Of a DNA stretch of 64,000 nt, positions 1,766-63,248 are shown one piece after another; within the stretch, counting starts at the first letter, position 1; each line of letters opens with the position of its first letter. The stretch lies in IMG/VR virus record IMGVR_UViG_3300028888_005256. One strand, given 5' to 3'. Position numbers and translations under genes: made by a program. This stretch comes from a virus (Duplodnaviria > Heunggongvirae > Uroviricota > Caudoviricetes). The notes under the pieces are model-generated. The model was not told the DNA's origin and ran no database searches. It saw only the letters and a program-made list of their open reading frames with translations.

Positions 1766-3661
1766 TTATAATGACATAGACTCTTGGAAATTGAACAGTT
1801 TCTTCCACATGTCTGCTTCAATGTAGTCTTTATTCATAAGAGAGTTCATAGTCTCGCCCTTTGTCTTCAAGTTCAACTCCTGAAGATTATCGATGCTGTC
1901 ATTATATCGCACTTTATATGTATTTACTATGTGATCTACGCCAGGCCTATGAATTCGTCCTAAAGACTGGTCGTAGTCTACATAATTGTAAGTAGACTCT
2001 ACATACACTGCAAAAGCACATTCAATCAAAGTAAGAGAAGTGTTCATAACATTTATAGATGCTATAAGCAATTTTTTGTCTGGGCTTTTAAGAAAGTCAT
2101 TTACAATTGTTAGTCTACTCTCTTTTTCAGTCTCAGCACCTATTTGAACTGGCTTATACTTTGCAAACTTTCTCATAAGAGATGTAGCAGTGTCTGGGTG
2201 ATAATACCAAAGAATTCCTTTCTCTTCGTATTCATTCACTCTTTCATCGACTATTGTGTCAACCAGATCAAGCTTAGTAGAGTCTTTCTCATAATTAAAG
2301 TTCTGAATTGCTTTTTTCAAATCATCAGGCATATTCTTGAATTGAGCACTTCTAAGCAAAGATGATGGGTTGTCTACACTTAATTGCAAGAATGGGAAGA
2401 TGCTGACAATTTTATGTGTGACATTGGCGCCTGTGAATTTTGCAGCTTCTTGTGCTTGTTGGACGCCCCACTGAGACAGCTTCTGATAGATTTCTCTCTG
2501 TTTCTTGCTCATGTCTACATAGAATGGCTTATGAATAATATGCTCAGGCAAGTCGAGACACTCTTTGCCTCTTTTAGTGCCATATACATCAAGAAGTTTT
2601 TTGTTCAATTCTCCGATTTTGTCTAGACGCCATTTCTCTGGATTTATAGCCCATTGAGAATAGACTGTGCCAACTTCATTGTATTCTGCACACCACTCTT
2701 GATATCCAAGACCATCTACAAGATCTTTGTCTAGATTCTTGCAAAGAGGATAAAGTTTTTCATATCTATCTGCAGGTGTAGCTGAGAACAGATATCTGAA
2801 CTTAAACTCCTGAATAGCCCAATTCATGATAGCTGAACGCCTTGAGCTTACGTGAGAAAGACAATGAACCTCATCAAGGAAAATGCACCCGTCTTTGCCG
2901 CCAAGCCACTCTTTAATTGGCATAAAAGACTTTCTGTAGTCTACTTTTGCAGACGGCTTCGGCTTCCTTTTTGTGCCTTTTGCTTTATCATAATAAAAGT
3001 TGCTTACTGTTTTCAAGAAGTCATAAGTCATTACAAAAACTTTTTGCGGGTACTTTTCTGTGTTGAAGATGTCTCTATCTTCATAGTCTGCACTTGCTGC
3101 TGACGAAAATGTAATAATGTCCTCTGGCTTAAGAGTCTTTGAAAACTTTAAAATCTCATTCTGCACATTAAGAACGCCGATATTCGAGGAGAACACGATG
3201 CACTTGTCAAAATCATTATAAAACCAACCATGAGACAAAATTGCAGAAAGTGCGTAACTTTTACCGAGGCCCATTCGCCAGTTGAACAGAAAACGATTCT
3301 GATTCATTGAGCGCACTATGTCTACTATTTGGAAGTCTTCATACGGGTGTTTCCCTACAAGAGGCGGAAAGTTGAGGAGCTCTTGATGCCAAGACTTTCT
3401 TTTTCTAGACAAGACTAATTCTTTCAAAGATGCCTTATACTTTTCAAGCTCTTTTTCTGACTCATAGTCAATGTCTACATAATCACCCATAGCTTCTGCA
3501 CGTTCTTTAAGCATTGAGTACTTTGTTATAGGGAGTTCCCATTTCTTTGTATCAGGCTTAAAATTTGCTCTAAACGACTTGAGCAAATCAATCATTTCAT
3601 GAAAATTATCACCTGATACTGCAGCGTAAACTTTATCTTTCTCAATTTCAATGCTAATCAT
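1766..3661 (-). CDS. SNF2/DEAD-like superfamily-2 helicase
   Basis: Motif I GLGKS (WRMGLGKSYA), motif II DEVH (FLDEVHCLSH), C-terminal helicase motif VI QSLGRIHRPG. 631 aa. Confidence 0.8.
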   Translation of the reverse strand: MISIEIEKDKVYAAVSGDNFHEMIDLLKSFRANFKPDTKKWELPITKYSMLKERAEAMGDYVDIDYESEKELEKYKASLKELVLSRKRKSWHQELLNFPPLVGKHPYEDFQIVDIVRSMNQNRFLFNWRMGLGKSYALSAILSHGWFYNDFDKCIVFSSNIGVLNVQNEILKFSKTLKPEDIITFSSAASADYEDRDIFNTEKYPQKVFVMTYDFLKTVSNFYYDKAKGTKRKPKPSAKVDYRKSFMPIKEWLGGKDGCIFLDEVHCLSHVSSRRSAIMNWAIQEFKFRYLFSATPADRYEKLYPLCKNLDKDLVDGLGYQEWCAEYNEVGTVYSQWAINPEKWRLDKIGELNKKLLDVYGTKRGKECLDLPEHIIHKPFYVDMSKKQREIYQKLSQWGVQQAQEAAKFTGANVTHKIVSIFPFLQLSVDNPSSLLRSAQFKNMPDDLKKAIQNFNYEKDSTKLDLVDTIVDERVNEYEEKGILWYYHPDTATSLMRKFAKYKPVQIGAETEKESRLTIVNDFLKSPDKKLLIASINVMNTSLTLIECAFAVYVESTYNYVDYDQSLGRIHRPGVDHIVNTYKVRYNDSIDNLQELNLKTKGETMNSLMNKDYIEADMWKKLFNFQESMSL

Positions 3662-3697
3662 AAGATTTAAAATATTAACAAAGAGAACTAATTTTCT

Positions 3698-5573: not shown

Positions 5574-5600
5574 TTTTTCTATTATATTATTATCGTAACT
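5574..5600 (+). promoter_or_regulatory. conserved phage promoter motif TTTTTCTATTATATTATTATC (extended -10 class)
   Basis: Same about 20-nt motif recurs seven times in the window, always 15-25 nt upstream of an SD and start codon. Here it is followed by GGGAGG and ATG 5624. Confidence 0.55.
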
Positions 5601-8853: not shown

Positions 8854-9153
8854 TTACTCAGCTTTCTCATTCTCAAGATACAGGTCAATCTTTGCAAGAA
8901 TGTCGTACAATGCGTCATCAACATTTGAAGGATCATCTGCATCTTTAGCCGACTTCCAATGTTTGTAAGCCTCTTTAATATGCTTTGGCTTCATTCCATG
9001 AGATTTTGCATACTCAGCAAAAGCATCATTGTTGTCTTTCTTTAGCATCTTAATCTGTGAATTGAGAGCTGTAATGCGCTCTTCCTGCTCAAATGCTTTC
9101 TCAAACTCACCAATAAGACCTGCTACTGAAAAATCTGTTACGACTTCGTCCAT
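8854..9153 (-). CDS. hypothetical protein
   Basis: AAGGAG SD upstream; 99 aa. Confidence 0.45.
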   Translation of the reverse strand: MDEVVTDFSVAGLIGEFEKAFEQEERITALNSQIKMLKKDNNDAFAEYAKSHGMKPKHIKEAYKHWKSAKDADDPSNVDDALYDILAKIDLYLENEKAE

Positions 9154-9194: not shown

Positions 9195-9569
9195 TTAACT
9201 GATTGTTGCATTCTGAACAACTTCGTTAATATGTCCAATTACCTTTTTGAAAGACTCAAGAGCCGACTTTTTGTCGTGAAAAAGACCTGCAGTAACATCA
9301 AGTCTTACAGTCATAAATGTCTCTTTTCCTGCACTGTTTTTCTGCTTGATTCTATGCATCTTACCATTTTCTTCTACGAGTGCATAGAAATTTGCAATCT
9401 TCTCTGTAGTTGTATGCTGCTTGATATACTTGTCAAACTCGTATGCATCAAAGCTTACTGAGTCTGAAGCTGCTTCGTATGCTACGCTATAAAGCACATC
9501 ACCAGCTTTCAAATTAGAAAAATTGCTCTTTCCAGTCTCCCCAGAATCTGCACCTGTTCTCAATTTCAT
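9195..9569 (-). CDS. hypothetical protein
   Basis: 124 aa; 4-nt overlap with the primase gene stop (translational coupling). Confidence 0.45.
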   Translation of the reverse strand: MKLRTGADSGETGKSNFSNLKAGDVLYSVAYEAASDSVSFDAYEFDKYIKQHTTTEKIANFYALVEENGKMHRIKQKNSAGKETFMTVRLDVTAGLFHDKKSALESFKKVIGHINEVVQNATIS

Positions 9570-10789
9570 TCTTGAATTATTCTCCTTTTCCTAGTAGTAG
9601 AATCATCAACTATGACTCTTCTCTTCTTTGTTTCAGTTTTCTTTAGTTCAGCAAGCTCTGTTACTTTCGCTTTAAGAAATTCTTCTGAAGTTTTGAACTG
9701 TCTTTCTCCTTCAAGCCATCTCATAGAACGAATTTCTTCTATAGACCGACCAGCTTTTACAGGAATGTCACCAACATCTTTTACGCCAATGTCTTTGTAT
9801 GGAGGAATGAGGAATCTCCAATTGCACTTTTCAAGTCTATCAGGACATAGTTCTTTCAATTTATTATAAAGTCGCAAAGCAGACTGGAATCCTGCCAAGT
9901 CGTTATCTACAATCTGTACAAAGCTGTCAAATTGAGACAAAAGATACACTTGTCTCTCTGCAAGAGATGCACCGAAAATAGCAGTAGAATTTTTCTCATT
10001 GAAGAATTTATCACTTCTAAGAACTGCTAAGTCCATCAAGCCCTCAACAAAATAGATTGTCTGAGTCTTGTCTAACTTTTCTAATTGATAGAGAGTACTT
10101 GTACTTGCGCCTATCGGATAAAGACACTTTTTATAGTCTACTTTCAAGCCTTCAGCTTTAATTCTTTTCTCAAAAGCATCTTCTCCTTCAATGTCTCTTG
10201 CCTCACAAGAAATCATTTTCCCATTCTCATAAATAGGAATAAGAAGTCGTTTTGAGAAATCTACTTGCTTCTTGAAATTATTCGGCTCTAAGGAATCGAA
10301 AGTTCTTGCAGAGATAGCATAAGACATTCTCATTCTGTCTGCAACTTTCAGAGGAATCTTTCTCTTATTAAGATACTCAATTGTTCTCTCATTTTTTGAT
10401 GCTGGCACTAAAGTTCCAGACAAGCCAATATGAACATCTGGAGTCTTAATTTTGTCAAGAGAGATTGCTTCTTGCACTTTTGTTTTGATAAAAAGACTTT
10501 TTAACAAAGAGGGCTCAGCTTCTTCTTGCTTTTCGTACGGAATGTCTAGTGCTCTATTTATTGAAATGCCTCTTAGCTCTTTGAAAAGAGCTCGTCCAGT
10601 TCCGTGCTTTCCGCAAGAGAAGCATTTGTAAATCAATCCGCCAGTTTCTACAATTTTCATTGAGCAGGACGGTTTATTGTCTCCGTGAAAAGGACAAGAA
10701 ACCATCTCTTTGTCACCAAATGAATATAGTCTTTTTCGATGAATACCCAAACGATTGAGTATTGCTTGTGATATCTCAAGCTCAGTCAT
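9566..10789 (-). CDS. DnaG-like DNA primase (zinc-binding plus Toprim domains)
   Basis: CHC2 zinc-finger CPFHGDNKPSCSM...KCFSCGKHG; Toprim signature YFVEGLMDL...IVDNDLAG. Confidence 0.75.
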   Translation of the reverse strand: MTELEISQAILNRLGIHRKRLYSFGDKEMVSCPFHGDNKPSCSMKIVETGGLIYKCFSCGKHGTGRALFKELRGISINRALDIPYEKQEEAEPSLLKSLFIKTKVQEAISLDKIKTPDVHIGLSGTLVPASKNERTIEYLNKRKIPLKVADRMRMSYAISARTFDSLEPNNFKKQVDFSKRLLIPIYENGKMISCEARDIEGEDAFEKRIKAEGLKVDYKKCLYPIGASTSTLYQLEKLDKTQTIYFVEGLMDLAVLRSDKFFNEKNSTAIFGASLAERQVYLLSQFDSFVQIVDNDLAGFQSALRLYNKLKELCPDRLEKCNWRFLIPPYKDIGVKDVGDIPVKAGRSIEEIRSMRWLEGERQFKTSEEFLKAKVTELAELKKTETKKRRVIVDDSTTRKRRIIQE

Positions 10790-10809: not shown

Positions 10810-11289
10810 TTATCTAAAGCTATAATTCACAAATCCTGCACCTGTGCTTACATTTTTCTGTATTCCAGAATTTTTTATTCCTGCATTTTTATCAAAGAAA
10901 TCTTGGAAAACATTTCTCTTAAACTCATTTTCTTTATTTTTCTCTATAGACGCATGAAGCTCTTTTGCAATATCTGCAGGGTTTAGATGCTCATTTACTT
11001 TTGTTACATGAAGTCTCTGAACTGTCTTAGCGTATCTGTCTAATAAAAAATACTCTCCATAGACAGTGCAAGCATTCTGTACATAGCCAAGAATACTTTT
11101 GCCCATTACAGATTCTATCAAATTGTAAAATCTTTCTCGTTTCATTGAGAACTTCAAGTGACCCTCATCTACAATGACTCTTACATTATCTGTAGCTGGG
11201 TTTGGCTGAAAAATCAAAAAGTAAAAGTTCTTCGTAAGCTGCTCTAAAGATTGCTGTTCTGCAACAGGCAATTGCTGATTATTTTCCAT
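10810..11289 (-). CDS. hypothetical protein
   Basis: 159-aa ORF in the same operon as the primase. Confidence 0.45.
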   Translation of the reverse strand: MENNQQLPVAEQQSLEQLTKNFYFLIFQPNPATDNVRVIVDEGHLKFSMKRERFYNLIESVMGKSILGYVQNACTVYGEYFLLDRYAKTVQRLHVTKVNEHLNPADIAKELHASIEKNKENEFKRNVFQDFFDKNAGIKNSGIQKNVSTGAGFVNYSFR

Positions 11290-13138
11290 TTACAAAATCC
11301 TCCAAAGCTGCATTGTCTCCATAATAAGCTTTCTTTACAATTTGAGAAGCAAACTGAAGATCAGCATTCAAATCGAATACTTTGTTGCAGAAAAACTCAT
11401 CATAGACATTTCCACAATAAAGGCCCTTTCTTGTGTTCTTTACACATATAATGAGCTCAAGCAATGACTCCCAGAAAAATACTAATGAAGAAGAGTCATT
11501 TCCGCAAAGCTCATGAACTGCTTTATAAATTCCAGTCCAGAATGCAATTTTCTGTTTTCCGTCATTTGAGTTAGACCATTTGCTTGAAAGCAAGAAGCTA
11601 TCATCATTTATGAAAACATAGGGAAATGCTTCACAGTTTTCATCTTTAGCAGCTTCTGCAGCGTAAGACATTCTCATTGCAGTTAAAAATTTGCCAAGAG
11701 ACTTAGAGAAATGTGCCCTCAAGAACATTATTTTCATCGCATCTCTTGAAATTTTCTGGCCTGTCTCGCTAAAAACTCTATCAGACATCATAGTGTAAAT
11801 GTCTTCTTGTTTGAAGTCATTGTCTGTGCTCAAAAATCTAAGCAAATTTGGTATCATCGATGATACATCTTGTCTAAAGCAGAGATTATTGTCTTCTACA
11901 ATTTTTTCTCGAGTACCATCTTCGTCTGAAGAAGAACATATATTCGACCAGATTCTGCAAGAGTACTTATTCTTCTTTATATGCAGATTCATTCGTTTAT
12001 GGAACTCATCTACTGGGACTGAATTATTGTACTCATCAATAAGCTTAAATGCTAAATCACTTGCTTTATTTGTTTTCTGCGAAAAAGCTACTTTCAACAA
12101 TTTTACAGAAGCACTTTTTACGCTTGCGTCATCTTCTATATCGCATTCTTTAAGGATATTTTTAATATCTGTAAATGCATCTGATTTTTTAGCTTCTTTG
12201 ACATTTGAGTCAGACAATAGAAGAGAAAGACAACAGTTAACTGCATTGTCTAGAGACTTCTTAGCAGAAATCTTTGCAAAAATGTCTTTGTCATTAGAGA
12301 AAAATGACTCTATTTTCTTAGAGGGCTTAAAATTAGAGTAATGAACAAGATCGAAGTTTCTGTCTTGCATTCTTCTTACAAATGATCTAGAGTTGCTTGC
12401 ATTTTTCTTATCGTACAATTCCTCAAAATCTTCTTTGCCAAGCAAGCCCTTGATTGCTTTCAAATTGAGAAGATACGCTGTAGCATAGCTTGCTTTTTTA
12501 TTTACAGAATCGAAACGATAATTCTTGCGTACTTCAAATGTCTGTCTGTCAATATAAGTATTTGGGACTACAAGACCCTCTTCTGCAAGCACATCTACTA
12601 AGCGAGTAAGAGACCTCAAGCCTAAATCAAAATTGTATCGTTCTTTGAGAAAATCAAGAGTAAAATTCGTAAAGCAACAATAGAAAGTGCGTCTATCTAG
12701 ATTCCTCTTAGAATACTTGCCTTCAGTGTCTTTTGCAAGCAAATAGCTCGTCTTGATAAGAGCTTTTATTTGATCCCACTTCTCATTTCTCTTATACTTA
12801 AAGTGGCTTAAAATATTGTCTTTCAATACATTAGGGCTTATTTTAAGTGATCTCAAATATGCATCGGATCTCTCAATTTTAAGACGAGTTCCCTTTGAAC
12901 TATACGCATTTCTCATCTTAAAGCCAAAATTGTAGTAAGTGACAACATCTTGACGAGAAGCTTGCTTTTCTATAATTTTTTGACGAGCATCATTTATTTT
13001 TTGCATGTAAGAAATTCTTTTTGCTCTTGATTTCTGTGCATGCTCATAAAAAGGAATAAAATCTTCAGTAAATACTTTTCTGTCTAAAAGGCTTTGAAGA
13101 AGTGAGTTGTTATGTGATGTACTAGATATATAGGTCAT
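11279..13138 (-). CDS. hypothetical large protein (619 aa); possible replication-associated protein
   Basis: ATG at 13138; three tandem conserved elements lie in its upstream region and the primase lies downstream in the same orientation. No catalytic motif recognised. Confidence 0.5.
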   Translation of the reverse strand: MTYISSTSHNNSLLQSLLDRKVFTEDFIPFYEHAQKSRAKRISYMQKINDARQKIIEKQASRQDVVTYYNFGFKMRNAYSSKGTRLKIERSDAYLRSLKISPNVLKDNILSHFKYKRNEKWDQIKALIKTSYLLAKDTEGKYSKRNLDRRTFYCCFTNFTLDFLKERYNFDLGLRSLTRLVDVLAEEGLVVPNTYIDRQTFEVRKNYRFDSVNKKASYATAYLLNLKAIKGLLGKEDFEELYDKKNASNSRSFVRRMQDRNFDLVHYSNFKPSKKIESFFSNDKDIFAKISAKKSLDNAVNCCLSLLLSDSNVKEAKKSDAFTDIKNILKECDIEDDASVKSASVKLLKVAFSQKTNKASDLAFKLIDEYNNSVPVDEFHKRMNLHIKKNKYSCRIWSNICSSSDEDGTREKIVEDNNLCFRQDVSSMIPNLLRFLSTDNDFKQEDIYTMMSDRVFSETGQKISRDAMKIMFLRAHFSKSLGKFLTAMRMSYAAEAAKDENCEAFPYVFINDDSFLLSSKWSNSNDGKQKIAFWTGIYKAVHELCGNDSSSLVFFWESLLELIICVKNTRKGLYCGNVYDEFFCNKVFDLNADLQFASQIVKKAYYGDNAALEDFVNGK

Positions 13139-13171
13139 TCAATAATTCCTGGTTATTGTTTGATTTAGAGG

Positions 13172-13205
13172 AAAACCAGTATTTTGAGGGTACTGGTTTT
13201 TCTTG
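13172..13205. promoter_or_regulatory. stable hairpin in the leader of gene 11279-13138
   Basis: AAAACCAGTA-ttttgaggg-TACTGGTTTT flanked by T-runs; lies between the upstream repeat elements and the start codon. Confidence 0.35.
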
Positions 13206-13266
13206 TCTTTAAATTAGTACTAAATCGAAAATACTTAAAAATATTAACAGAAATCTCATCTTAAAA

Positions 13267-13359
13267 AATTTAAATTAATAATTAATAGCGAATATCCTTC
13301 TGCTCCCCCCTCCCCACCAATCTATGCGTACTCGTGGCCATTAATAGTTGACGAATTCG
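13267..13359 (+). repeat. conserved bipartite intergenic element, copy 1 (L-box 24-mer, 48-nt C-rich core, R-box 22-mer)
   Basis: L-box AAATTTAAATTAATAATTAATAGC at 13267-13289 and R-box CCATTAATAGTTGACGAATTCG at 13338-13359; core contains CTGCTCCCCCCTCCCCACC. Confidence 0.85.
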
Positions 13360-13395
13360 TGATATTAGTGGTATCAGTTTTCTTAAAAAGAAATA

Positions 13396-13483
13396 AATTT
13401 AAATTAATAATTAATAGCTATACTCGCAGCAGCCTACTGCTCTGCAATCAGTGAGCGGAGCCCCATTAATAGTTGACGAATTC
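13396..13483 (+). repeat. conserved bipartite intergenic element, copy 2
   Basis: Identical L-box; R-box variant ending AATTCA; core TATACTCGCAGCAGCCTACTGCTCTGCAATCAGTGAGCGGAGCC. Confidence 0.85.
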
Positions 13484-13535
13484 AAGAATAAAAAAACACT
13501 CTACAGTAAAAATTCTTTAAAAATTAATTAATAAA

Positions 13536-13626
13536 AATTTAAATTAATAATTAATAGCTAGCTATCCCCCCCCTGCACCCTCTTCCCACTAGTGCTGATC
13601 GTCCCCATTAATAGTTGACGAATTCG
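13536..13626 (+). repeat. conserved bipartite intergenic element, copy 3
   Basis: Identical L-box and R-box; core contains ATCCCCCCCCTGCACCCTCTTCCCAC and ends TGCTGATCGTCC. Confidence 0.85.
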
Positions 13627-13657
13627 TTTTAAGAGACTGAGATGTTAATATAAATAA

Positions 13658-13999
13658 ATGTTCAAAGAGTACTTTTCAAAATATGTAGCTCTCAAAGAAT
13701 CTTTTCCTGTAAGGCTTATAGATGTCGAAGACAACAAGATTTACTGTCCATATTGCAAGCAAGAACTAAAGCCAGTTGGTCCGGGCTCAAAATGTGATTG
13801 CCAGGATTCTCTTAGAATCGAAGATGCTATTAAAGAGTCTCAGATGATTACAGAAGAGTACAAAAATAAGCTTGAAGCTGTAAAAGCAAAAGTAAGCGAT
13901 TGTATGAGAAATTCTTTTATTAGAGATTTTCTTTGGTACAAATATTCAGTAGACGAAAAAGCACAATTCTTTGCTGAAGCAGAGAAAGAAGGCTTTTAA
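13658..13999 (+). CDS. hypothetical zinc-ribbon protein
   Basis: CPYCKQ...C.C motif; no clear SD; sits immediately upstream of the chaperonin gene. Confidence 0.4.
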   Translation: MFKEYFSKYVALKESFPVRLIDVEDNKIYCPYCKQELKPVGPGSKCDCQDSLRIEDAIKESQMITEEYKNKLEAVKAKVSDCMRNSFIRDFLWYKYSVDEKAQFFAEAEKEGF

Positions 14000-14016: not shown

Positions 14017-15687
14017 ATGTCGGCGAAAGAATTTTTATTTGGTGAAGCTGCAAGAAAGCGAATGCTTGAGGGCATCAATCAGCTTGATAGAATAGTCACT
14101 TGCACACTTGGTCCTTCTGGACGAAATGTTCTTATTAGTAAAGGGACTGCTCACCCTGTCATTACAAAAGACGGTGTTTCAGTAGCAAGAGAAGTTGATT
14201 TTGATGACCCTTACATGAAAGCTGGCTCAGATACAATCAAAGAAGCTGCAGAAAGAACAAACACAATGGCTGGTGATGGAACGACAACTACAATTCTTTT
14301 GAGCTCAGAATTGTCTCGTCAGGGTGTAAAGCTTATTTCTTCTGGATTTGACCCTATTGAAGTCCAGAAAGGCTTTGATGCAGCTTGCAATCTCGTTCTT
14401 GAAGAACTCGACAGTTTTAAGATTCCTGTAGAGTCTGGCGAAGACATTGAGCATGTAGCATTTGTCTCAGGAAACAATGATAAAGAAGTAGCAGCAATTG
14501 TTCGTGAAGCTTTTGAAGGTGTTGGTGACGGTGGCGTAGTAAATCTTGATACTTCACAGTCTAAGACAGGCAGAACATTTGTAAGATTCACTGATGGTAT
14601 GTCTTTTGGCAAAGGTATCAATGGCGGTGCTTATGTTACAGATTTGAAGAAAGAATCTTTTGAAGCAGACAATCCTCGTGTATTGCTCTCAAATTACACT
14701 CTTACTTCTAAAGAGATTCAGACAGAATTATCGAATGCATACAAAGACAAAGTGCCACTTGTAATTATTGCTCCTCACATTTCAGAGCAGGGTGAGACTG
14801 CTATGATTATGCAGGCAAAAAAGAAAACTGTCACTTGTGCACAGATCATTCCACCAGGAAACTCTCTTTATGAAGTTCAGGAAAAGATGAAAGACCTCGC
14901 TGCTATTCTTGGTTGTAAAGTGATTGAATCAGCTGATGATTTGTTTGAGTACAAATACGGTACTTGTGACCATATCTCATCAACACTTTACAAAACTGTC
15001 ATCTCAGGTTCTCATGGTACTGAAGAGCTCATCAATGAACGTGTAGAAGACCTCAAGAAACAGATTGAGAACGGCACTGCAGAAGACGTTGAAGTCGGAA
15101 TGTCTGAAGCAGAGATTAAAGCAATCAAAGAACGAATTGCAGCTCTTACAGGCGGTATCGCAATTATTTGCATCGGCGGAAACTCTGAAACTCGTGTAAA
15201 AGAGCTTAAAGACCGCTATGAAGACGCTATTCGAGCAGTAGAGTCTGCTATTGAAGAAGGCATTGTACCTGGTGGTGGATGTGCTCTTCTTAAAGCTGGT
15301 GCAAAAGTACGAAAAGAAGCAGCTTTGCAGGATGTGACAAGAGATTTTGAAGCTGGATTTGAAGCATTCTTGAAAGCTTGTAGAAAGCCTGTTACAAGAA
15401 TCATTTCTTCAATTTCAGATGATTACTCATACATCATTTCTAAGATCGAAAATGAAGCAGGCAAAAACTTCGGCTACAATGCAAAAACTCAAGAGTATGA
15501 AGAAGACATGATTGCTGCTGGAATTGTAGATCCGCTCAAAGTTACAAAATGGGCATTGAAAAATTCTACAGCAGTAGCTGGTATTTTCATTACTACAGAA
15601 TGTGCAATCGTTCCATCAGCAAGAAATGTTTCAGTTGAGCCAATTGACCCACTGAAAGATAGAAATTTCGGTATTGAGGGCATCTAA
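14017..15687 (+). CDS. groEL: GroEL/Cpn60-family chaperonin
   Basis: Matches GroEL along its length from memory of the E. coli protein (ITKDGVSVAREV, AGDGTTTT, TLGPSGRNV). GGAGATATA SD. Lacks the C-terminal GGM tail. No GroES-like gene adjacent. Confidence 0.9.
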   Translation: MSAKEFLFGEAARKRMLEGINQLDRIVTCTLGPSGRNVLISKGTAHPVITKDGVSVAREVDFDDPYMKAGSDTIKEAAERTNTMAGDGTTTTILLSSELSRQGVKLISSGFDPIEVQKGFDAACNLVLEELDSFKIPVESGEDIEHVAFVSGNNDKEVAAIVREAFEGVGDGGVVNLDTSQSKTGRTFVRFTDGMSFGKGINGGAYVTDLKKESFEADNPRVLLSNYTLTSKEIQTELSNAYKDKVPLVIIAPHISEQGETAMIMQAKKKTVTCAQIIPPGNSLYEVQEKMKDLAAILGCKVIESADDLFEYKYGTCDHISSTLYKTVISGSHGTEELINERVEDLKKQIENGTAEDVEVGMSEAEIKAIKERIAALTGGIAIICIGGNSETRVKELKDRYEDAIRAVESAIEEGIVPGGGCALLKAGAKVRKEAALQDVTRDFEAGFEAFLKACRKPVTRIISSISDDYSYIISKIENEAGKNFGYNAKTQEYEEDMIAAGIVDPLKVTKWALKNSTAVAGIFITTECAIVPSARNVSVEPIDPLKDRNFGIEGI

Positions 15688-23162: not shown

Positions 23163-23186
23163 GTATAAGTAATATAATAAAAAGTT
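23163..23186 (-). promoter_or_regulatory. conserved phage promoter motif (minus strand reads CTTTTTATTATATTACTTATAC)
   Basis: Member of the TATTATATTA motif family; no CDS downstream, only the structured GC-rich region. Confidence 0.5.
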
Positions 23187-27314: not shown

Positions 27315-27393
27315 AATTTTTAAATTAATAATTAATAGCAACCAACCTACCCTCTAATATGCTGATCGTCCCCATTAATAGTTGACGAATTCG
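27315..27393 (+). repeat. conserved bipartite intergenic element, copy 4
   Basis: L-box 27315-27339, R-box 27372-27393, 32-nt core AACCAACCTACCCTCTAATATGCTGATCGTCC. Confidence 0.85.
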
Positions 27394-27437: not shown

Positions 27438-27456
27438 GAATGTATATATGTTTTAG
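27438..27456 (+). promoter_or_regulatory. conserved GAATGTATATATGTTTTAG unit (extended -10-like TGTATATAT)
   Basis: Same unit is present twice on the minus strand at 43211-43230 and 43249-43267. About 60 nt after the R-box here and at 43.2 kb are co-conserved. Confidence 0.4.
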
Positions 27457-43176: not shown

Positions 43177-43275
43177 AATCTCTTATATGAAATTAACATA
43201 GATTGAATATCTAAAACATATATACATTTGTATAATTATATTCGATCAAAAACATATATACATGTGTTTATTATA

Positions 43276-43355
43276 CGAATTCGTCAACTATTAATGGGGA
43301 CGATCAGCATATAGTAGGAGGGTTAGAACTGCTATTAATTATTAATTTAAATTTT
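43276..43355 (-). repeat. conserved bipartite intergenic element, copy 5 (inverted orientation)
   Basis: Reverse complement gives an exact L-box and R-box with core AGTTCTAACCCTCCTACTATATGCTGATCGTCC. Confidence 0.85.
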
Positions 43356-43393
43356 AAAGATTAGAATCATATTAGTAGTTCTACTAATTTCTT

Positions 43394-46300
43394 ATGTTAA
43401 ACGAGAAGCAACAATCATCTTTACTATACAAGCATTTTATGGGCATGGGCTCTACTCGTCTTCAGAGAGAATTCTTCGAGGAGTCTGCTAAATCTGCTTT
43501 CGCTGTTCTTCCAAAAGATATTTGGATGTATGCAGAAATGATTCCTAATGGATCTGAAGTTTCAGGTGGACTTGAATCTCTTGAAAAGATCAGAGACCTT
43601 TCAGCTGAGAATCCTTTGTTCACTTGGTTCAAGACTGAGTCTCAGCCAAAGTACCCAATTGTAAAATTTTGGGATAAACTTAGACTTACGCCTGTCGATG
43701 ATGGCACTGACAATTCATTCTATGTAAAAGACGAGAATGGTAATTTTATACGCAATGCGATCCCATTCAATTACTATGAAGACTATTATGCGTACTCTCT
43801 TTATACAGAAGACGGACGACAAATTCCTTTCGGCGTAGGTGATTGGACTTTTGATGCATCTTCAGGCATCTTGTCTTTCTTTGACATTATTCCTGATGGC
43901 ATAGACCATAATCATCCACCATTGTTCTCTTTCTATCAGTACGCAGGTGAATGTGGCATCAAGAGTTCTCTAGATGATTTGTTTGAGTCTGCAGTTTTGC
44001 CAATTACAAATTTCTGCATCCCAGAAGGCTCACCATTCATTTCTCTGAATAAAGACAATGAAAAGACTCTTCTTGAGCATATCAAAGATCAGACAAACAA
44101 AGTAGAAGACAATTATCTCTCTACTTATGGCTTTGACGGTGGTGATAAGAATGAAGGTGTTGCTTTCTCATGGGAAAGAGTCTTTCCTCTAATCTACACA
44201 AAGACAAAAGATTACGTAAAGGGCTATGATTCTAGTGCGACAGCTCAGATTGTTGTTACTTACTCTAGCAAATATGCAGTTTCTGAAGCAGAAAATGATT
44301 TCTTCTCTGTAGGCTTCGTTTCACATAATTGCTCTGATGAGAAGTTCACTCTCAAGCTTTCTGAGGGAAATATCGAATCTTGGGCAGACGGTGAGCTGAT
44401 TGATTCTAAAGCATTCAATTCTCAGCCAGATACAGCAAACATAAAGCTTGCATTGAACAATGGCTTCTGTTATGTACAGAAAAAGTCGAGCTTCACAGAA
44501 GATGCTGAATTTGAATTCTCTGTAGCAAACAGCATTGGTGAAGACGGAAAAGTAACTGGATTGCTTTTGTACTGGTCTTCAGCTAAGATGGACTATCTCC
44601 CATTTGTGCCTAAAGAAGAAGACCACTATGATTTCGGCTTCCCAATTGTAAGCCTTATTGGTAAGATTCCTCCTTCAATGAAGATGGACTCTACAGCTCT
44701 TACATCATTTGAAGATCAGATTACGCCAGATTACTATGGTCCTAGAGTTGCAGTTGCAGTAATTGGTCTTGAAGACGGTGATGCAACAAAATCTGCTGAC
44801 TACATTGTAAAGAATAAGCCTGGTTTCTATTTAGATGAGATTCTTACGGCAGTAAGAGAAGACCATCACTACGGAAAAGTTTATCTTCGTTCTGGCATCT
44901 ACAAGACAACGGGCACTCTTGATTTAAGTGATATCATCATTGAGGGCGAGGGCGACACTAAGATTGAAGGAGACACTCTTACAATAAGCAATGGTGAGAG
45001 AGACTACAATCATACATGCATTTCTCATATTGAACTTGACTTCAAAGACATAAGCATCTCTAATGACAACTGTATCATTGCAAATGTTTTCGCAAATTCT
45101 GCTACAATCACTGTAGAAGCAGATGTACAGAAGTTCATTCTTGAAAATGCTACAGTAGACACATTAAAGATTAAAGCTTCTAATCCAGCTGATTTTAGTC
45201 TAAAAGTTTTCAGCAGCAGATTCAGAAATGTAGAGATTGAATCAGCAAATGTAGTATTTGCAGATAATGTTGTAACAGGTTCATTGACTCTTCCAGAGAA
45301 TTTTAATTCTTACATCAAGTCTTCTTACATCAATAAAGTCTTCAATTTTAGCACAAAAGCAAAAGTTGACGGCACTTTCATAAATGAATATGATTTAGAG
45401 TCAGTTGCTGAGCATGGCATTACACCTATCGGTTCAGACAAAGAAGATACAACTGGACGATTTGCAATTTTTGATAAGAATGATTTCAAAAGCACTCGAT
45501 ATGCTGAATTCAAAGAGCCATTCCACTACAATAGAGACACTGATGTAATTGAGCTTCTTTATGACAAAGACTATGTAGACCTTGATGCAGATGGCAGACT
45601 TTATGTTACAGCAGACACAAAGCATTTGCACCCTGCACCAGATACAGTATTCTCTCGTGGAGATAATGCTTCAGATGATAATAAAGAATTCTTGCCTGCA
45701 AAGCAGTACAATTACAAAGATCATACAATAGACGATGTTCTTAAAGATTTGTGGCATGAAAAGGCCGACTTGACTGCTAGTGGAAAGATTCCTTTGCAGC
45801 AATTGCCAGATGCAGTAGCTTATGGTGGATTGATGTATGTAGGAAACTGGTCATTTGAAGACCATGATGGTGAGTACCCTACATTCAATGATGCAAACCA
45901 ATTCTTGTCTGCTGACAACACTAATAAAGCAATTCAGCGTGGTTGGTTCTGGGTTGTATCTGCTTCTAAAAATAAAGATAGCGATAGCGAAGAAGAAAAC
46001 ACTCCAGTAGCAGTTCAAGTTGCTAAAGATGGTGTAGAATATACTGCAGGTGACTGGGTAGTTTACTGTGGCGGTGAGAAACAATGGGATAAGCTTGATA
46101 GAGCATTCTCTGATCCAGCATACTCACCTCTCCCCTCTTCATCAAAAGCAACAGACGAGCCAGATAAGCCTTGGTACTGGAAAAACGATAGAAGGGGTGG
46201 AGCTCTTGAGCTTGGTGGCGATACAATCATCACTGCTTTCAATAAAGTAAATGATCAGCTCAGAAAACTTGAGCCTAGAAAGCCAGACAGTATCAATGAC

Positions 46301-47830
46301 AGTGAGCTCGTTCTTGATGATAAAGACATTCCAAAAATTAAGTTCCGCAAAATGACTTCCGGTGACACGCCAAGCGAAGAAGTTTATGAAGCTTATGATG
46401 GTTCTTACTTTGATGGTGAGAAGTCACTTCACTACACATTGAAGAACAAAAGTCCTTCTGACTCTAATTTGATTTACTTTGGCGATAGCGCAAAAGTTTC
46501 TGTAGAGCTTAATGAGCAAACTATTCTAGATGATTACAATGTAGGTGAAGCTTATAATGCTGGCGGAATTCATATCTCTGCACCAAAAGATGCATTTGAG
46601 AATGAAGTAATGGGCAAGAGCTTCTGGAACGGTATCTCAATTGATATTGATGTTCCAGTAAGAGACTACAATAAGCTTGAAGAGTCAGACACATCAGAAT
46701 TCGTACCTGGTGTAGATAATAATTCTCTAAAAGTTTCTCTTACAAATGTAAGAATTGACGGAGATGATTCTGAGCAAATGTCTTCTTACAATGGAAATGC
46801 TTTTGCAAGATTCAGTTCTGTGATACCATACTTCTATCTTAATGATAGCTCGTTATTCAATGTCAGAATTGCAAATCAAGACAGAATAAATGCTTTGATG
46901 AAAAGAGACATTTGTTCAGGAATAGAACAAACTACTCTTGACAAGATTGAGAAACTTGAATTCTCTGGTGAGCTGACAGGCATTTGGTCTAACATTCTTC
47001 ATGAAAGTCGTTTAATAGACTTCAAGGTAATGCTCAATGACAAAGATGTATTCTGTGAGACAGTCAATGGCGATACTGCTTTGAGTTTCAAGAACACTGC
47101 ACAAAGTGGCAGCCATGCAAATTACAGTGCCGACTTTGACATTGATATGCCAATTACATTTGACAAAGACATTATTCTTACTGAAGATGATGAGCTTGAA
47201 TTGTATGCTACTTTCTATAGTGTAAAAGGAACTACAGAAGTGAAGATTGCTTCATTCAAGAATGTCTTTAGAATTGATGGAGTGTCTGAGAAAGAAAGAC
47301 TTACTGCAGGCTCATTTGATGAGATTCATGACATCAATTATGGAGAAGCATTCAACAGCAATTCTCCTGAAGATGGTGCAAGCATTAAGAAAGGCAGAAT
47401 GCTTGAGAATGGAAAACATATTTATGAGTACTCTCCTGGTACTGCATGCTTCTATCTTGGCGAATTTGACAACATTGCAGGCTTTACAGTAGAGATTCAC
47501 ATCCCAGAAGATAAAGAAGTCCCTGCTGTAGATAAATTTACTGGTTCTACTGAAGGCCTTAGACTTCAATGTAGATTTGAGACTGAGCATGAAGATTCTG
47601 GCTCAGGATTGACAATGAGAGATGCAGCTTCTCCTTGGCTTGATTGCAACTCTCCAGTTGGCTGGTATAATAAGCCTGCTAATGATTTAGATCCAGTTAT
47701 GTATGCAGCAAAGTCTACAGCTCTTAGAAAGAGAGTTTCTTTCGGAAGACTACTTTACTCTGGAAAATTGTACATTCGCTTGAAGACAGAGTTTGAATTC
47801 ACTAGTGTTGAGTTGGTTGAGGTTGTTTAA
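43394..47830 (+). CDS. very large structural protein, probable tail fibre/tail spike (1478 aa)
   Basis: Repetitive beta-strand-like blocks (ISNDNCIIANVFANSATITVEADV...) suggest a beta-helix. Assignment is inference from size and composition. Confidence 0.45.
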   Translation: MLNEKQQSSLLYKHFMGMGSTRLQREFFEESAKSAFAVLPKDIWMYAEMIPNGSEVSGGLESLEKIRDLSAENPLFTWFKTESQPKYPIVKFWDKLRLTPVDDGTDNSFYVKDENGNFIRNAIPFNYYEDYYAYSLYTEDGRQIPFGVGDWTFDASSGILSFFDIIPDGIDHNHPPLFSFYQYAGECGIKSSLDDLFESAVLPITNFCIPEGSPFISLNKDNEKTLLEHIKDQTNKVEDNYLSTYGFDGGDKNEGVAFSWERVFPLIYTKTKDYVKGYDSSATAQIVVTYSSKYAVSEAENDFFSVGFVSHNCSDEKFTLKLSEGNIESWADGELIDSKAFNSQPDTANIKLALNNGFCYVQKKSSFTEDAEFEFSVANSIGEDGKVTGLLLYWSSAKMDYLPFVPKEEDHYDFGFPIVSLIGKIPPSMKMDSTALTSFEDQITPDYYGPRVAVAVIGLEDGDATKSADYIVKNKPGFYLDEILTAVREDHHYGKVYLRSGIYKTTGTLDLSDIIIEGEGDTKIEGDTLTISNGERDYNHTCISHIELDFKDISISNDNCIIANVFANSATITVEADVQKFILENATVDTLKIKASNPADFSLKVFSSRFRNVEIESANVVFADNVVTGSLTLPENFNSYIKSSYINKVFNFSTKAKVDGTFINEYDLESVAEHGITPIGSDKEDTTGRFAIFDKNDFKSTRYAEFKEPFHYNRDTDVIELLYDKDYVDLDADGRLYVTADTKHLHPAPDTVFSRGDNASDDNKEFLPAKQYNYKDHTIDDVLKDLWHEKADLTASGKIPLQQLPDAVAYGGLMYVGNWSFEDHDGEYPTFNDANQFLSADNTNKAIQRGWFWVVSASKNKDSDSEEENTPVAVQVAKDGVEYTAGDWVVYCGGEKQWDKLDRAFSDPAYSPLPSSSKATDEPDKPWYWKNDRRGGALELGGDTIITAFNKVNDQLRKLEPRKPDSINDSELVLDDKDIPKIKFRKMTSGDTPSEEVYEAYDGSYFDGEKSLHYTLKNKSPSDSNLIYFGDSAKVSVELNEQTILDDYNVGEAYNAGGIHISAPKDAFENEVMGKSFWNGISIDIDVPVRDYNKLEESDTSEFVPGVDNNSLKVSLTNVRIDGDDSEQMSSYNGNAFARFSSVIPYFYLNDSSLFNVRIANQDRINALMKRDICSGIEQTTLDKIEKLEFSGELTGIWSNILHESRLIDFKVMLNDKDVFCETVNGDTALSFKNTAQSGSHANYSADFDIDMPITFDKDIILTEDDELELYATFYSVKGTTEVKIASFKNVFRIDGVSEKERLTAGSFDEIHDINYGEAFNSNSPEDGASIKKGRMLENGKHIYEYSPGTACFYLGEFDNIAGFTVEIHIPEDKEVPAVDKFTGSTEGLRLQCRFETEHEDSGSGLTMRDAASPWLDCNSPVGWYNKPANDLDPVMYAAKSTALRKRVSFGRLLYSGKLYIRLKTEFEFTSVELVEVV

Positions 47831-50466: not shown

Positions 50467-50548
50467 TTTTTAAATTAATTAATAATTTAATAGCAACCAA
50501 CCCACCCTTCAATATAGCGCTCGTGGCCATTAATAGTTGACGAATTGG
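50467..50548 (+). repeat. conserved bipartite intergenic element, copy 6 (diverged)
   Basis: L-box variant with small insertions (TTTAAATTAATTAATAATTTAATAGC); R-box CCATTAATAGTTGACGAATTGG; core AACCAACCCACCCTTCAATATAGCGCTCGTGG. Confidence 0.8.
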
Positions 50549-50556
50549 TAATCATA

Positions 50557-50586
50557 GGGTAACAATTGTTAACCATGGGTAACAAG
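50557..50586. promoter_or_regulatory. operator-like site: GGGTAACAA direct repeats around the perfect 12-bp palindrome TAACAATTGTTA
   Basis: GGGTAACAATTGTTAACCATGGGTAACAAG, about 160 nt upstream of gene 50745. Confidence 0.4.
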
Positions 50587-52080: not shown

Positions 52081-52683
52081 CTATATGCCAGTGCTTCCGA
52101 ATCCGCCAGAGCCTCTAGAAGTTTTTTCTGAGTAGAAAGACTTCTGCAGCTCAGGATTCGTAAACCCATCTACAAATTCAGGCTTTGTCAAATCAATAAG
52201 CTTAGGAATAAGCTGAACCATCTTCTGGCCAAAGTCGAGATGAGTGCAAAGGTCTTTAGAGTAGTTTATGATATGAATCCCAATCTCACCTTGATAGCTT
52301 GAATCAATAATACAAGCACCACACTGAAACTTCTGTTTGCGGCAGACTCCTGATTTGTTGTTCACTTCAAGCTCGATATTGTTGTTGAAGCTAGACTTTA
52401 TTCCAGACGGGATAAGAATGTCATCGCCGGGCATAACAAAAATGCCAGATTCAGAAGCAGTTGTTCTTAAACGGTTATTTCGAAGCTTCACACCATAGAA
52501 AGGCGTTTCAACAATCTCAATCCAAGGGTTGAGCTCTTTAAGCTCTTTCAAGAACTCAAGTGAAAATTCTGGTACAAAGAAGTCAAAACCAGCATCTTCA
52601 CCAACATTTCTATTTGGGAACTTTACGTCCCGAATTCGCATAAATTTCATCATAATAAGATTATTAACATCTATTCGAGACAA
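52081..52683 (-). CDS. dut: trimeric dUTP diphosphatase (dUTPase)
   Basis: All five dUTPase motifs: AGFDF, NKSG, GACIIDSSYQGEIG, QKMVQL, SRGSGGFGSTG. Confidence 0.85.
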   Translation of the reverse strand: MSRIDVNNLIMMKFMRIRDVKFPNRNVGEDAGFDFFVPEFSLEFLKELKELNPWIEIVETPFYGVKLRNNRLRTTASESGIFVMPGDDILIPSGIKSSFNNNIELEVNNKSGVCRKQKFQCGACIIDSSYQGEIGIHIINYSKDLCTHLDFGQKMVQLIPKLIDLTKPEFVDGFTNPELQKSFYSEKTSRGSGGFGSTGI

Positions 52684-52694
52684 ACTAATTTTTT

Positions 52695-60855: not shown

Positions 60856-60880
60856 CTATAATAATATAATAAAAGTTACA
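60856..60880 (-). promoter_or_regulatory. conserved phage promoter motif (CTTTTATTATATTATTATAGC)
   Basis: TATTATATTA motif family member. Confidence 0.5.
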
Positions 60881-61931
60881 TAGTGATTTTAGTTATTATA
60901 CGAGCTATTTTGTAATGATAGTCTGGCCTATAGCTACAAGGGATAATCACCATACCATAATTTGCACTTAAACTGTCTGCTTTTTGTTTGATGGCAGTGT
61001 TTCGTTTATATATTGAGCTGACACCGTCTCTTTTGTACGCATAATCAATTGTACAATCACCCACAGAATCAGCATTTGACGGTAAGACGAACTCTAAAAT
61101 TATAACATTTCTTAGATCTTTTTTTGTGCATTTATAAGGCATATTGAACAATACTTTATTGGGACCAGTTCCAACTGGTATGGCCTCATAAGGACATTGG
61201 TTTATAGAATGAAGAGTGTCACCAAAGCTCAATTTGTTTGTTGAAGTTGGAGAACCAAAACAGAAAGTATTTCTGATGCTATCATATACCAGGTCTGATA
61301 CAGTACTTAGATCTAATGTCACATTCTGATAGAAAACAACATTCTGCAAGCCAGAATAATAATTCTTAAGTTTGTTAAGATCATCTTTGTAGTCAAATAG
61401 CCTGTTGTAAAAGAGTCTTCTATCAGGTCCCTTATAATCTATGGTGTTGCTCCCCCCTTGTTTTCCAGCTACGAATACAGGTGTAGATACTATAAGCAAA
61501 TGTCCGCTAAAGGCAGTTACTGATGTTGCTGTAGCTGTGCTTGAGTTCTCAAGCTTTTTAATGTCTTTATCAACTGTGGGGAACAGGAGTGTTATAGTTA
61601 CATTAGGCAATAATATAAACGGATGAATCGTTGATCCGCCTGCATTTATAATTTTTTGTATGTGGATAGCTTTTGGGTATTTAGTAGAATTTTTGATTGT
61701 GAGCTCTTTTACATAGTAGTTTGGATCTGTAGGACGAGCACTATTGAAAGAACACATAAACGCATAAAAAGATTTTGGCTCATTATATGGATCTGTGATT
61801 TTTACTGTAACTTGCCCATCAAAGGTGGCGTTATCAACAGTTTTACAGCTCTTTCTTATGCATCTGTAGTCAAAAGCATCATAGCTGCTTATTATTCCAT
61901 GAGAAGCAGTGTTGCCAAATTCAATTTGCAT
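60876..61931 (-). CDS. hypothetical protein; N-terminus paralogous to 38216-40342
   Basis: MQIEFGNTA...; 351 aa. Confidence 0.45.
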   Translation of the reverse strand: MQIEFGNTASHGIISSYDAFDYRCIRKSCKTVDNATFDGQVTVKITDPYNEPKSFYAFMCSFNSARPTDPNYYVKELTIKNSTKYPKAIHIQKIINAGGSTIHPFILLPNVTITLLFPTVDKDIKKLENSSTATATSVTAFSGHLLIVSTPVFVAGKQGGSNTIDYKGPDRRLFYNRLFDYKDDLNKLKNYYSGLQNVVFYQNVTLDLSTVSDLVYDSIRNTFCFGSPTSTNKLSFGDTLHSINQCPYEAIPVGTGPNKVLFNMPYKCTKKDLRNVIILEFVLPSNADSVGDCTIDYAYKRDGVSSIYKRNTAIKQKADSLSANYGMVIIPCSYRPDYHYKIARIITKITM

Positions 61932-61976
61932 AAAAAATTAGTTTCATCTGCAAAAATCTAAGAAAACTAATTTTTT

Positions 61977-63248
61977 ATGCAAATTTCTATAGATCTGTCA
62001 AACAATGAATTGCCAGCAGGCATGACATTGCTACATGAAAACGTAGTTGACAAGCTTAAAGAGCATGAACAAATAGAGTGGAAAGACACTCTTAAAGAGC
62101 TAAACCCAAAAAGTCCCGCTTCAGTGGGCGTGTCATCTGCAATTGTGCTGAACGGCTTTGTAAAATCTATAGATGTCAGAAACTGGGTAGTGAAGAAGTT
62201 TGAGAAAAAGACTGATGACTTTGTAGAATGGGTAGATAATACTCTTATAAAAGACAATTTAGAGAACTTTGCAAATGTCTGGTGGGACAAAGGCATTGAC
62301 TACTACAATAAGAAAATTGAAGAGAAGACAGGCATAAAGAATGCATTTTCAAGCTTCAAGTTAAATCTTGGCTACTCTAACAAAGAATGGGCGATCATAG
62401 GTGATTTGAAAGCTTTAGCTGCAGAAGATGAGATGAAGTATAATGCAGCGCATCCAAGCAAATCTACATGGAACAGACGAGTGTTCCCTTTAAAAAAAGT
62501 TGTGCCACCTGACAAAAAGTTCACAAATAAAGCTGTACAGGCTCTTATAGATGCAGGACCAGATTCAATGTCTCACATGTTTGATGTCTTTTTCTATGTA
62601 GACCAAGCATCTATTGGACGAGCAGGATATGATGCATCTAAAGAAACAGATAAAGAAATTACAAATCAGATTATTCTGTCTTCAAGAATTCTATCTATAG
62701 AAATACCAAACTATCTTATAGACGAATATGATGAGATTCTTCCAGTGGGCGCTATCAAAAAAGGTGCATCGACAGTGTCTTTTGAGAATAAGTCTTCTTT
62801 CTCATTTAGAGTTGACAATGACTTCATAATAAAAGATATGTTTGACGCATATAGTCTCACATCTTGGAAAATAGACTCTAACGGAACACTCAATAGTTCA
62901 GAGCCAGTCCCATATTCTTTTGCAAGAAAATGTGGAAGAAGCAGTAAAGGCAAGCTTACTATCATAGTAAAAAGAGCTACGCCTACGCCAGCTACAGGCA
63001 ATACATTTGTGTCTGACAACATAAAAAAAGCTATGGGACCATTTTTTAATTTTGATAATAGTACTGATGTGAGTCCTTCTGAAGAAGCTACCATGTCTCA
63101 GTACTTGAATGATTGGTTTGTGTTTGAAGATGTAAAGATTCTTGGTTCTGATGGACCAATTTCTTTTACTAGAGATGATGCAAACACTTCAAGTCTTACT
63201 GAAGAGTTTATTTTCAAAAGATTCTATAGATTTACTTCAAGAGGATAA
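61977..63248 (+). CDS. hypothetical protein
   Basis: 423 aa; weak RBS. Confidence 0.45.
   Translation: MQISIDLSNNELPAGMTLLHENVVDKLKEHEQIEWKDTLKELNPKSPASVGVSSAIVLNGFVKSIDVRNWVVKKFEKKTDDFVEWVDNTLIKDNLENFANVWWDKGIDYYNKKIEEKTGIKNAFSSFKLNLGYSNKEWAIIGDLKALAAEDEMKYNAAHPSKSTWNRRVFPLKKVVPPDKKFTNKAVQALIDAGPDSMSHMFDVFFYVDQASIGRAGYDASKETDKEITNQIILSSRILSIEIPNYLIDEYDEILPVGAIKKGASTVSFENKSSFSFRVDNDFIIKDMFDAYSLTSWKIDSNGTLNSSEPVPYSFARKCGRSSKGKLTIIVKRATPTPATGNTFVSDNIKKAMGPFFNFDNSTDVSPSEEATMSQYLNDWFVFEDVKILGSDGPISFTRDDANTSSLTEEFIFKRFYRFTSRG

Follow-up and report, generated by a model that had tools for sequence, protein, structure and literature searches.

A dispersed family of conserved intergenic units in an uncultured jumbo phage and its possible role as phage-specific promoters

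This study analyzed a 64,000-nucleotide stretch of DNA (hereafter, the window) from an uncultured, GroEL-encoding jumbo phage with a 326,542-bp contig. The GroEL gene lies at 14017-15687, a primase gene at 9566-10789, and a SNF2-type helicase domain at 1766-3661; a Mre11-like nuclease, an RNA ligase, a DNA methylase, and a dUTPase were also identified in the window. Protein searches revealed a clade of 240-330-kb phages known only from metagenomes. Among cultured phages, no related DNA and no portal-protein match were found, and GroEL identity did not exceed 35%. The phage GroEL grouped in a phage clade with 40-75% identity, and the nearest cellular GroELs were those of Treponema/Spirochaetota (36-38%), a weak hint on the host. 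Shine-Dalgarno (SD) sites were present before many genes but absent from several operon-first genes. Homologues of a 1478-aa protein (43394-47830) occurred in more than 100 metagenomic jumbo-phage contigs at 29-41% identity; the protein had no Pfam or PDB match, even when a 27-sequence profile was compared with the PDB, and was not recognizable as a polymerase.

The locus under study is a 519-bp noncoding gap (13139-13657), hereafter the hub, between a gene on the minus strand (11279-13138) and one on the plus strand (13658-13999). The minus-strand gene encodes a 619-aa protein that the preliminary description had taken for a helicase. The primase also mentioned there was confirmed, but the 619-aa protein contained no Walker A or other NTPase motif and matched no family or PDB entry, and its predicted structure was poor (pLDDT 49). 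The protein adjoins the primase also in the relatives L004 and L006, and it may be an unrecognized replication protein. Between the unit array described below and the gene start at 13138 lies a strong hairpin (13169-13203) with 13-nt arms (12 of 13 positions paired), enclosed by an A run and a T run; it belongs to the leader of the gene for the 619-aa protein and could act as a bidirectional terminator or an attenuator.

The hub contains three tandem plus-strand units, each comprising a left box (L-box), a core, and a right box (R-box). U1 (13266-13359) consists of L-box 13266-13289, core 13290-13337, and R-box 13338-13359; U2 (13395-13483) of L-box 13395-13418, core 13419-13462, and R-box 13463-13483 (21 nt); and U3 (13535-13626) of L-box 13535-13558, core 13559-13604, and R-box 13605-13626. 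The 24-nt L-box AAATTTAAATTAATAATTAATAGC was exact in all three units, as had been claimed, although U1 begins one position away from the start given earlier. The R-box CCATTAATAGTTGACGAATTC was exact over 21 nt at 13338, 13463, and 13605, with start-to-start spacings of 125 and 142 bp; the 22nd base included in the preliminary description is G only in U1 and U3 and A in U2. Neither box was expected by chance (L-box, zero matches expected from 100 shuffles), and shuffled sequence yielded no such matches; the units thus lie far above chance. The shared 8-mer ATTAATAG and both reported palindromes were also found.

The measured core lengths (48, 44, and 46 nt) agreed with the 44-48 nt reported. 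The cores differ from one another, though not as completely as described: their 3' 12-15 nt were semi-conserved between units, reading ..ATATGCTGATCGTCC in U3, U4, and U5 and ..GC.CTCGTGG in U1 and U6 (U4 to U6 are located below). The view that the cores are always C-rich was correct, and to an extreme degree, for U1 (42% C) and U3 (48% C, with a C8 run); no other 30-mers in the 64 kb are as C-skewed as these two. It failed for U2 (32% C, 25% G), whose core instead holds a small hairpin.

The family extends beyond the hub: further units were identified at 27316, 43354 (minus strand), and 50467, and a seventh lies left of the window. U4 (27316-27393, plus strand) sits between two minus-strand genes and has an L-box variant with two mismatches (27316-27339), a core at 27340-27371, and an R-box at 27372-27393. 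U5 (43276-43354, minus strand) occupies a divergent gap, with L-box 43354-43331, core 43330-43298, and R-box 43297-43276. U6 (50467-50548, plus strand) carries an L-box variant with a 4-nt insertion (50467-50494), a core at 50495-50526, and an R-box at 50527-50548 that ends in ..AATTGG. The seventh unit (U0), approximately 1.3 kb beyond the left edge of the window, was found on a Logan contig that stops within its R-box. All seven copies were intergenic, and the R-box was identical over 20-21 nt in each. The 9-mer TATTAATGG, taken from the reverse strand of the R-box, occurred six times in the window, every time inside a unit. The boxes were identical in six to seven copies, whereas the cores and the inter-unit spacers were unrelated, which argues that selection acts on the boxes and that the copies do not reflect recent duplication. 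The units are thus a real, non-random, evolutionarily conserved family of cis-elements.

Two further repeats were observed beside the dispersed units. An exact 15-mer, ATGTATATATGTTTT, was present three times, at 27440-27454 (plus strand), 43213-43227 (minus strand), and 43249-43263 (minus strand), always 14-50 nt downstream of the U4 or U5 R-box. The sequence GGGTAACAA occurred twice directly downstream of U6, at 50557-50565 and 50577-50585, 20 bp apart in an operator-like arrangement. Logan short-read contigs ended inside units in L003, L007/L008, L010, L006, and L062. Since contigs of both the phage and its relatives end within units, the repeats fragment assemblies, and contig ends can reveal more copies.

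Read on the reverse strand, each unit runs AATT-(variable)-CTATTAAT|GG, after which come a semi-conserved GGnnACGA, an SD-like G-rich stretch, and an A/T tract. The CTATTAAT|GG segment was invariant in 13 copies. Pairing energies between the reverse-strand cores and the anti-SD sequence were -7 to -11.5 kcal/mol, placing 10 of 11 units in the top 0.2-5% of background windows. The L-boxes were the six longest pure A/T runs of the 64-kb window (26-41 nt).

We further compared the units with related phages and found homologues of the R-box in three other lineages, namely L010, L061 (three copies), and L006. On the forward strand, the R-box reads CCATTAATAG, six lineage-specific bases, and AATT; CCATTAATAG and AATT were invariant in all four lineages, and the middle was uniform within each genome but different between genomes (TTGACG, TTGCCA, GTGACA, and TGGACA). 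In L061, a 240-kb phage, an A-run, a C-run, and CCATTAATAGGTGACAAATTGCCAA occurred together three times, two of them in tandem 115 bp apart, with the "core" shrunk to approximately 10 nt. In L006, CCATTAATATGGACAAAATTCGT lies 60 nt upstream of a 5'-3' exonuclease gene heading a replication module that includes a homologue of the 619-aa protein. In L010 (GroEL 60% identical), CCATTAATAGTTGCCAAATTCGG was found at a contig end, and no unit was present at the GroEL genes. In the closest relative, L009 (GroEL 75% identical), the orthologous Zn-ribbon/GroEL genes are preceded by only 50 nt, which contain no unit. These comparisons point to the R-box as the conserved core of the element.

A C-rich, G-poor tract preceded the R-box in every lineage. 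Conservation of the cores among relatives, the outcome named beforehand as damaging to the original interpretation, was not what we found, the tract upstream of the R-box being again variable and C-rich. Of the architecture, the R-box and its variable C-rich tract thus recurred in related phages but not the L-box, which is specific to this lineage, though AATTTAAATT recurs in L006. The element was absent from approximately 66 kb examined in more distant relatives (34-47% identity). Exact and degenerate searches with the R-box and L-box in IMG/VR, JGI metagenomes, and GTDB genomes returned chance matches only, either to AT-rich DNA or to a coding region conserved in marine bacteria. A search of IMG/VR with the back-translated 619-aa protein and GroEL yielded no relative, and a full-text literature search for the motifs returned nothing relevant.

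Several other promoter-like motifs were present in the window. The extended -10-like motif TGTTAATAT occurred four times (0.76 expected). One copy (13241-13249, minus strand) points left just beyond the U1 L-box and may be the proximal promoter of the leftward operon. Another (13643-13651, plus strand) ends 6 nt before the ATG at 13658 and is a candidate promoter of that gene's own, which suggests that the gene does not need the units; the L009 orthologue, which lacks units, is likewise preceded by a TGTTAATAT motif.

A sigma-70-like motif (TTGAAA..TCTATTATATTA, or TTGAAA or TTGAAC followed by (T)CT(A/T)TTATATTA) occurred in six copies against 0.49 expected, at 5578 and, on the minus strand, at 23181, 27305, 36308, 50453, and 60873. 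It was also found in L010 (3640-3670), L011 (1419 and 16294), L063, and L064; it is conserved clade-wide and probably marks host-polymerase promoters. A third motif, (A)ACTAATTT(T/C)TT, was located at 3686-3697, 43382-43393, 52683-52694, 61935-61943 (minus strand), and 61965-61976, with further sites at 1354 (minus strand), 7735, 13217 (minus strand), 16643, 26563 (minus strand), and 59727. It directly precedes the ATG of several first genes without an SD site and probably represents a promoter class giving leaderless or near-leaderless mRNAs. In addition, a 22-nt inverted repeat, AAACTAATTTTTTATGCAAATT (61931-61977), precedes the divergent genes 60876-61931 (minus strand) and 61977-63248 (plus strand) and takes in the first three codons (M-Q-I) of both.

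On the basis of these findings, we propose, at a probability of roughly 0.45, that the units are phage-specific promoter cassettes that are dispersed over the genome and present in part of the clade. The functional core would be the reverse strand of the R-box, that is, AATT, approximately six to seven lineage-specific bases, CTATTAAT, and GG (AATT-N7-CTATTAATGG). A phage-encoded RNA polymerase or sigma-like factor would recognize this asymmetric box of approximately 21 bp, and transcription would begin on the reverse strand at or near the invariant GG of CTATTAATGG. The C-rich core would then be the template for a G- and purine-rich 5' leader resembling an SD sequence, which might act as a STAB-SD stabilizer. 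Farther downstream in the direction of the transcript, the L-box would form an A/T-only tract; in U1, U4, U5, and U6 it would also cover approximately -35 to -60 of another promoter of that gene, one of the host type, and might serve this proximal promoter as an upstream A/T element. Under this proposal, the three tandem hub cassettes would drive the leftward operon encoding the 619-aa protein, a 159-aa protein, and the primase and would not drive the GroEL operon.

The repeats, with their positions, composition, and pattern of conservation, were observed directly; promoter function, the direction and start of transcription, and the polymerase are what we infer from the specificity of the units and boxes, the pattern across lineages, the reverse-strand layout, and the SD-like composition of the leader. 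The box is asymmetric, approximately 20 bp long, nearly identical in every copy, and intergenic; its conserved ends enclose a lineage-specific middle, an arrangement that phage polymerase promoters typically show. The presence of promoter-like motifs belonging to the flanking genes themselves also argues for the promoter reading, as does the occurrence of the element at the replication module in two lineages, yet not at the Zn-ribbon/GroEL genes of the relatives. Several weak arguments favor the reverse strand: the association with the replication module; the L side, which faced a gene start at seven of eight loci, compared with five of seven for the R side, a difference that was not significant; and the placement of U4 and the L061 copy L061a, each lying between two genes that run in the same direction as its reverse strand.

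Other findings count against the promoter reading. U0 would fire antisense into an 850-aa gene, and the proposal accounts only loosely for a 24-nt L-box that is perfectly conserved. The element was missing in the more distant relatives. No RNA polymerase or sigma gene was found among approximately 60 window open reading frames, and approximately 80% of the genome lies outside the window.

The units share several properties with the promoters of T7, T3, and SP6. Both have an asymmetric box of approximately 20 bp repeated nearly exactly many times per genome, both comprise an AT-rich part, a specificity part, an AT-rich melting part, and, as proposed for the units, a G start and a purine-rich initial transcript, and in both the specificity bases vary between related phages. 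The SP6 promoter shares TAGGTGACA with L061, but on the forward strand, opposite to the favored one, and this match may be chance. The units differ in that no gene for a polymerase of this type was found in the window, in having a start only proposed from sequence, and in carrying an extra C/G-skewed tract and a long A/T tract, neither of which T7-type promoters are known to have.

A second comparison concerned the early promoters of jumbo phages with multisubunit virion RNA polymerases, such as phiKZ and AR9; these promoters are AT-rich motifs of approximately 10 nt near -10 that can be detected bioinformatically (PMC7598289). As with the units, a conserved AT-rich motif stands upstream of operons and differs from phage to phage, and this match to the published description further suggests a promoter (PMC7598289). 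The box of the units is twice as long, and no beta/beta'-like genes and no DxDGD motif were found in the window. The proposed leader resembles STAB-SD, a 5' mRNA stabilizer of Bacillus cry3A, in that an SD-like sequence lies close to the proposed 5' end but is not followed by a suitably spaced start codon (PMC4113751).

Transcription in the opposite direction, rightward from the units, is rather unlikely. In this case, the R-box would provide a -35-like TTGACN or a T7-like box starting at ..AATT|CG, and the hub would hold three tandem promoters for the Zn-ribbon/GroEL/portal-like genes, comparable with A1/A2/A3 of T7, which are tandem early promoters with a spacing of approximately 125 bp; the 125/142-bp spacing of the hub R-boxes is in keeping with this. 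A forward-strand hexamer matching TTGACA at five of six positions in four lineages favors the rightward direction and counts against the reverse strand. So do the gene starts on the R side, the sense orientation of U0 after the 850-aa gene, and a good TTGCCA-17-TATACT arrangement in L010. However, the best -10 sequences at 16-18 bp averaged 3.2 of 6 matches, compared with 3.27 in shuffled flanks, and sigma-70 scans remained at or below chance. Rightward transcripts from U4 and L061a would run into convergent genes at their 3' ends, the orthologous GroEL operon of relatives lacks a preceding unit, and gene 13658 has its own TGTTAATAT. Moreover, the copies within a genome all depart from TTGACA in the same way, which would not be expected of host sigma-70 sites. 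A canonical sigma-70 promoter was rejected, the -35 hexamer being present (5/6) but a matching -10 element being absent. Of the functions first suggested for the array, that of tandem promoters provided the best fit, but the elements are dispersed, centered on the R-box, probably directed along the opposite strand, and not of the canonical sigma-70 kind.

An alternative that we likewise regard as improbable is that the R-box, perhaps together with ATTAATAG of the L-box, is the site of a phage-encoded transcription regulator (an activator, a repressor, or an insulator) acting on adjacent host-type promoters, the box being no promoter in its own right. Another promoter-like motif stands beside every copy, an observation that weighs against the promoter reading because it suits an activator or operator site equally. 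A TGTTAATAT-type promoter has its inferred start approximately 70 bp downstream of the box center in L006 and L061a; the tandem copies resemble enhancer-like site arrays, and uniformity within genomes with change between them would also suit co-evolution of a regulator and its site. Nevertheless, the box is long (approximately 21 bp) and asymmetric for such a site, its ACGAATTCGT palindrome is not preserved in L061 or L010, and the distance to the neighboring promoter varies from approximately 45 to approximately 115 bp. A plain operator would leave the constant C-rich and A/T tracts unexplained, and the sole hint of a regulator was a weak GapR-like match at 8854-9153.

A transcription-primed origin, although compatible with the promoter reading, is more doubtful still. 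According to this explanation, the G-rich RNA made from the promoter would stay hybridized to its C-rich template beside the easily melted A/T tract. The primary origin of T7 has two tandem phage promoters (phi1.1A/B) and an AT-rich region, and T4 ori(uvsY) and ori(34) combine a promoter with an unwinding element. Like these origins, the units have promoter-like boxes, tandem in the hub, followed on the reverse strand by the most meltable DNA of the region near replication genes: the L-boxes are the longest A/T runs, C skew peaks in the cores of U1 and U3, the primase operon directly adjoins the triple array, and an element precedes the L006 replication module. The units differ from the T7 and T4 origins in their many dispersed copies and an interposed G-rich segment. 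Furthermore, seven copies in approximately 65 kb are dense for origins, the relatives show short C runs and A-rich tracts but no A/T-only box, and the GC-skew minima near the units simply reflect gene orientation.

The resemblance to iterons noted in the preliminary description was not borne out. Origin iterons form a cluster of direct repeats, each of approximately 17-22 bp, that keep helical register at a single locus beside an initiator gene. The units share with them only the nature of intergenic direct repeats near replication genes; they are spaced at 125-142 bp and not at approximately 22 bp, are dispersed over at least five loci in both orientations, and keep their box in distant relatives across 31-60% protein identity, and no initiator was identified.

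Mobile or recombination-prone miniature repeats with little function of their own are a very improbable explanation. Such repeats could be MITE-like or resemble PeSLs, the promoter/stem-loop repeats of T4-type phages. The units are indeed missing at the orthologous site of the closest relative, vary in copy number by lineage, and coincide with breaks in assemblies. However, their ends are unrelated, with no terminal inverted repeats or target-site duplications; these ends are exact while the interiors diverge, and the R-box has been kept over the same range of protein identity as stated above.

The least credible of these explanations is an array of small-RNA genes, as had also been proposed, with forward transcripts whose C-rich, anti-SD-like seeds would bind ribosome-binding sites. 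The CCUCC-like tracts in the cores and the conserved flanks would suit such genes. By contrast, Rfam and tRNA scans were empty, no terminators were found, forward-strand folds were like those of shuffled sequences (z-scores of -1.4 to +1.3), and neither strand showed a consistent structure. No forward-strand promoter was recognized, the L061 core is only approximately 10 nt long, and core matches elsewhere in the window did not exceed chance, leaving the cores without targets there.

Further candidates were rejected. A CRISPR-like array does not agree with an L-box that differs from the R-box or with core matches elsewhere of at most 9-12 nt, the length expected by chance. A sigma-32 promoter was considered on account of the similarity of CCCCATTA to CCCCATnT and the nearby GroEL gene, but only CCATTA is invariant, in L061 the C run lies directly against CCATTA, and the GroEL operon of relatives carries no unit. 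A sigma-54 promoter was dismissed on its wrong spacing and the presence of TGG in only two units, and mini-ORFs starting from the invariant ATGG on their mutually unrelated predicted peptides of 5-32 aa. Looping between the two ATTAATAG copies was discounted because their spacings of 43-59 bp are out of helical phase, and site-specific nicks and IHF sites were unsupported.

The statement that the array fits no standard feature class was too strong as worded. Most likely, the units are not a new kind of element but a new version of the phage-specific promoter cassette in an unstudied jumbo-phage clade. If a transcription-primed origin proved to be the true explanation, the phage would have a dispersed set of origins, with a triple one before the primase operon, which would show how so large a genome is copied. 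If the promoter reading is confirmed, it would predict a phage polymerase or specificity factor co-evolving with the box, the boxes would mark operon heads, and the fragmentation of short-read assemblies at the units would be explained. For a clade with almost no nameable proteins, the box of approximately 21 bp would provide a first handle on the gene-expression programme.
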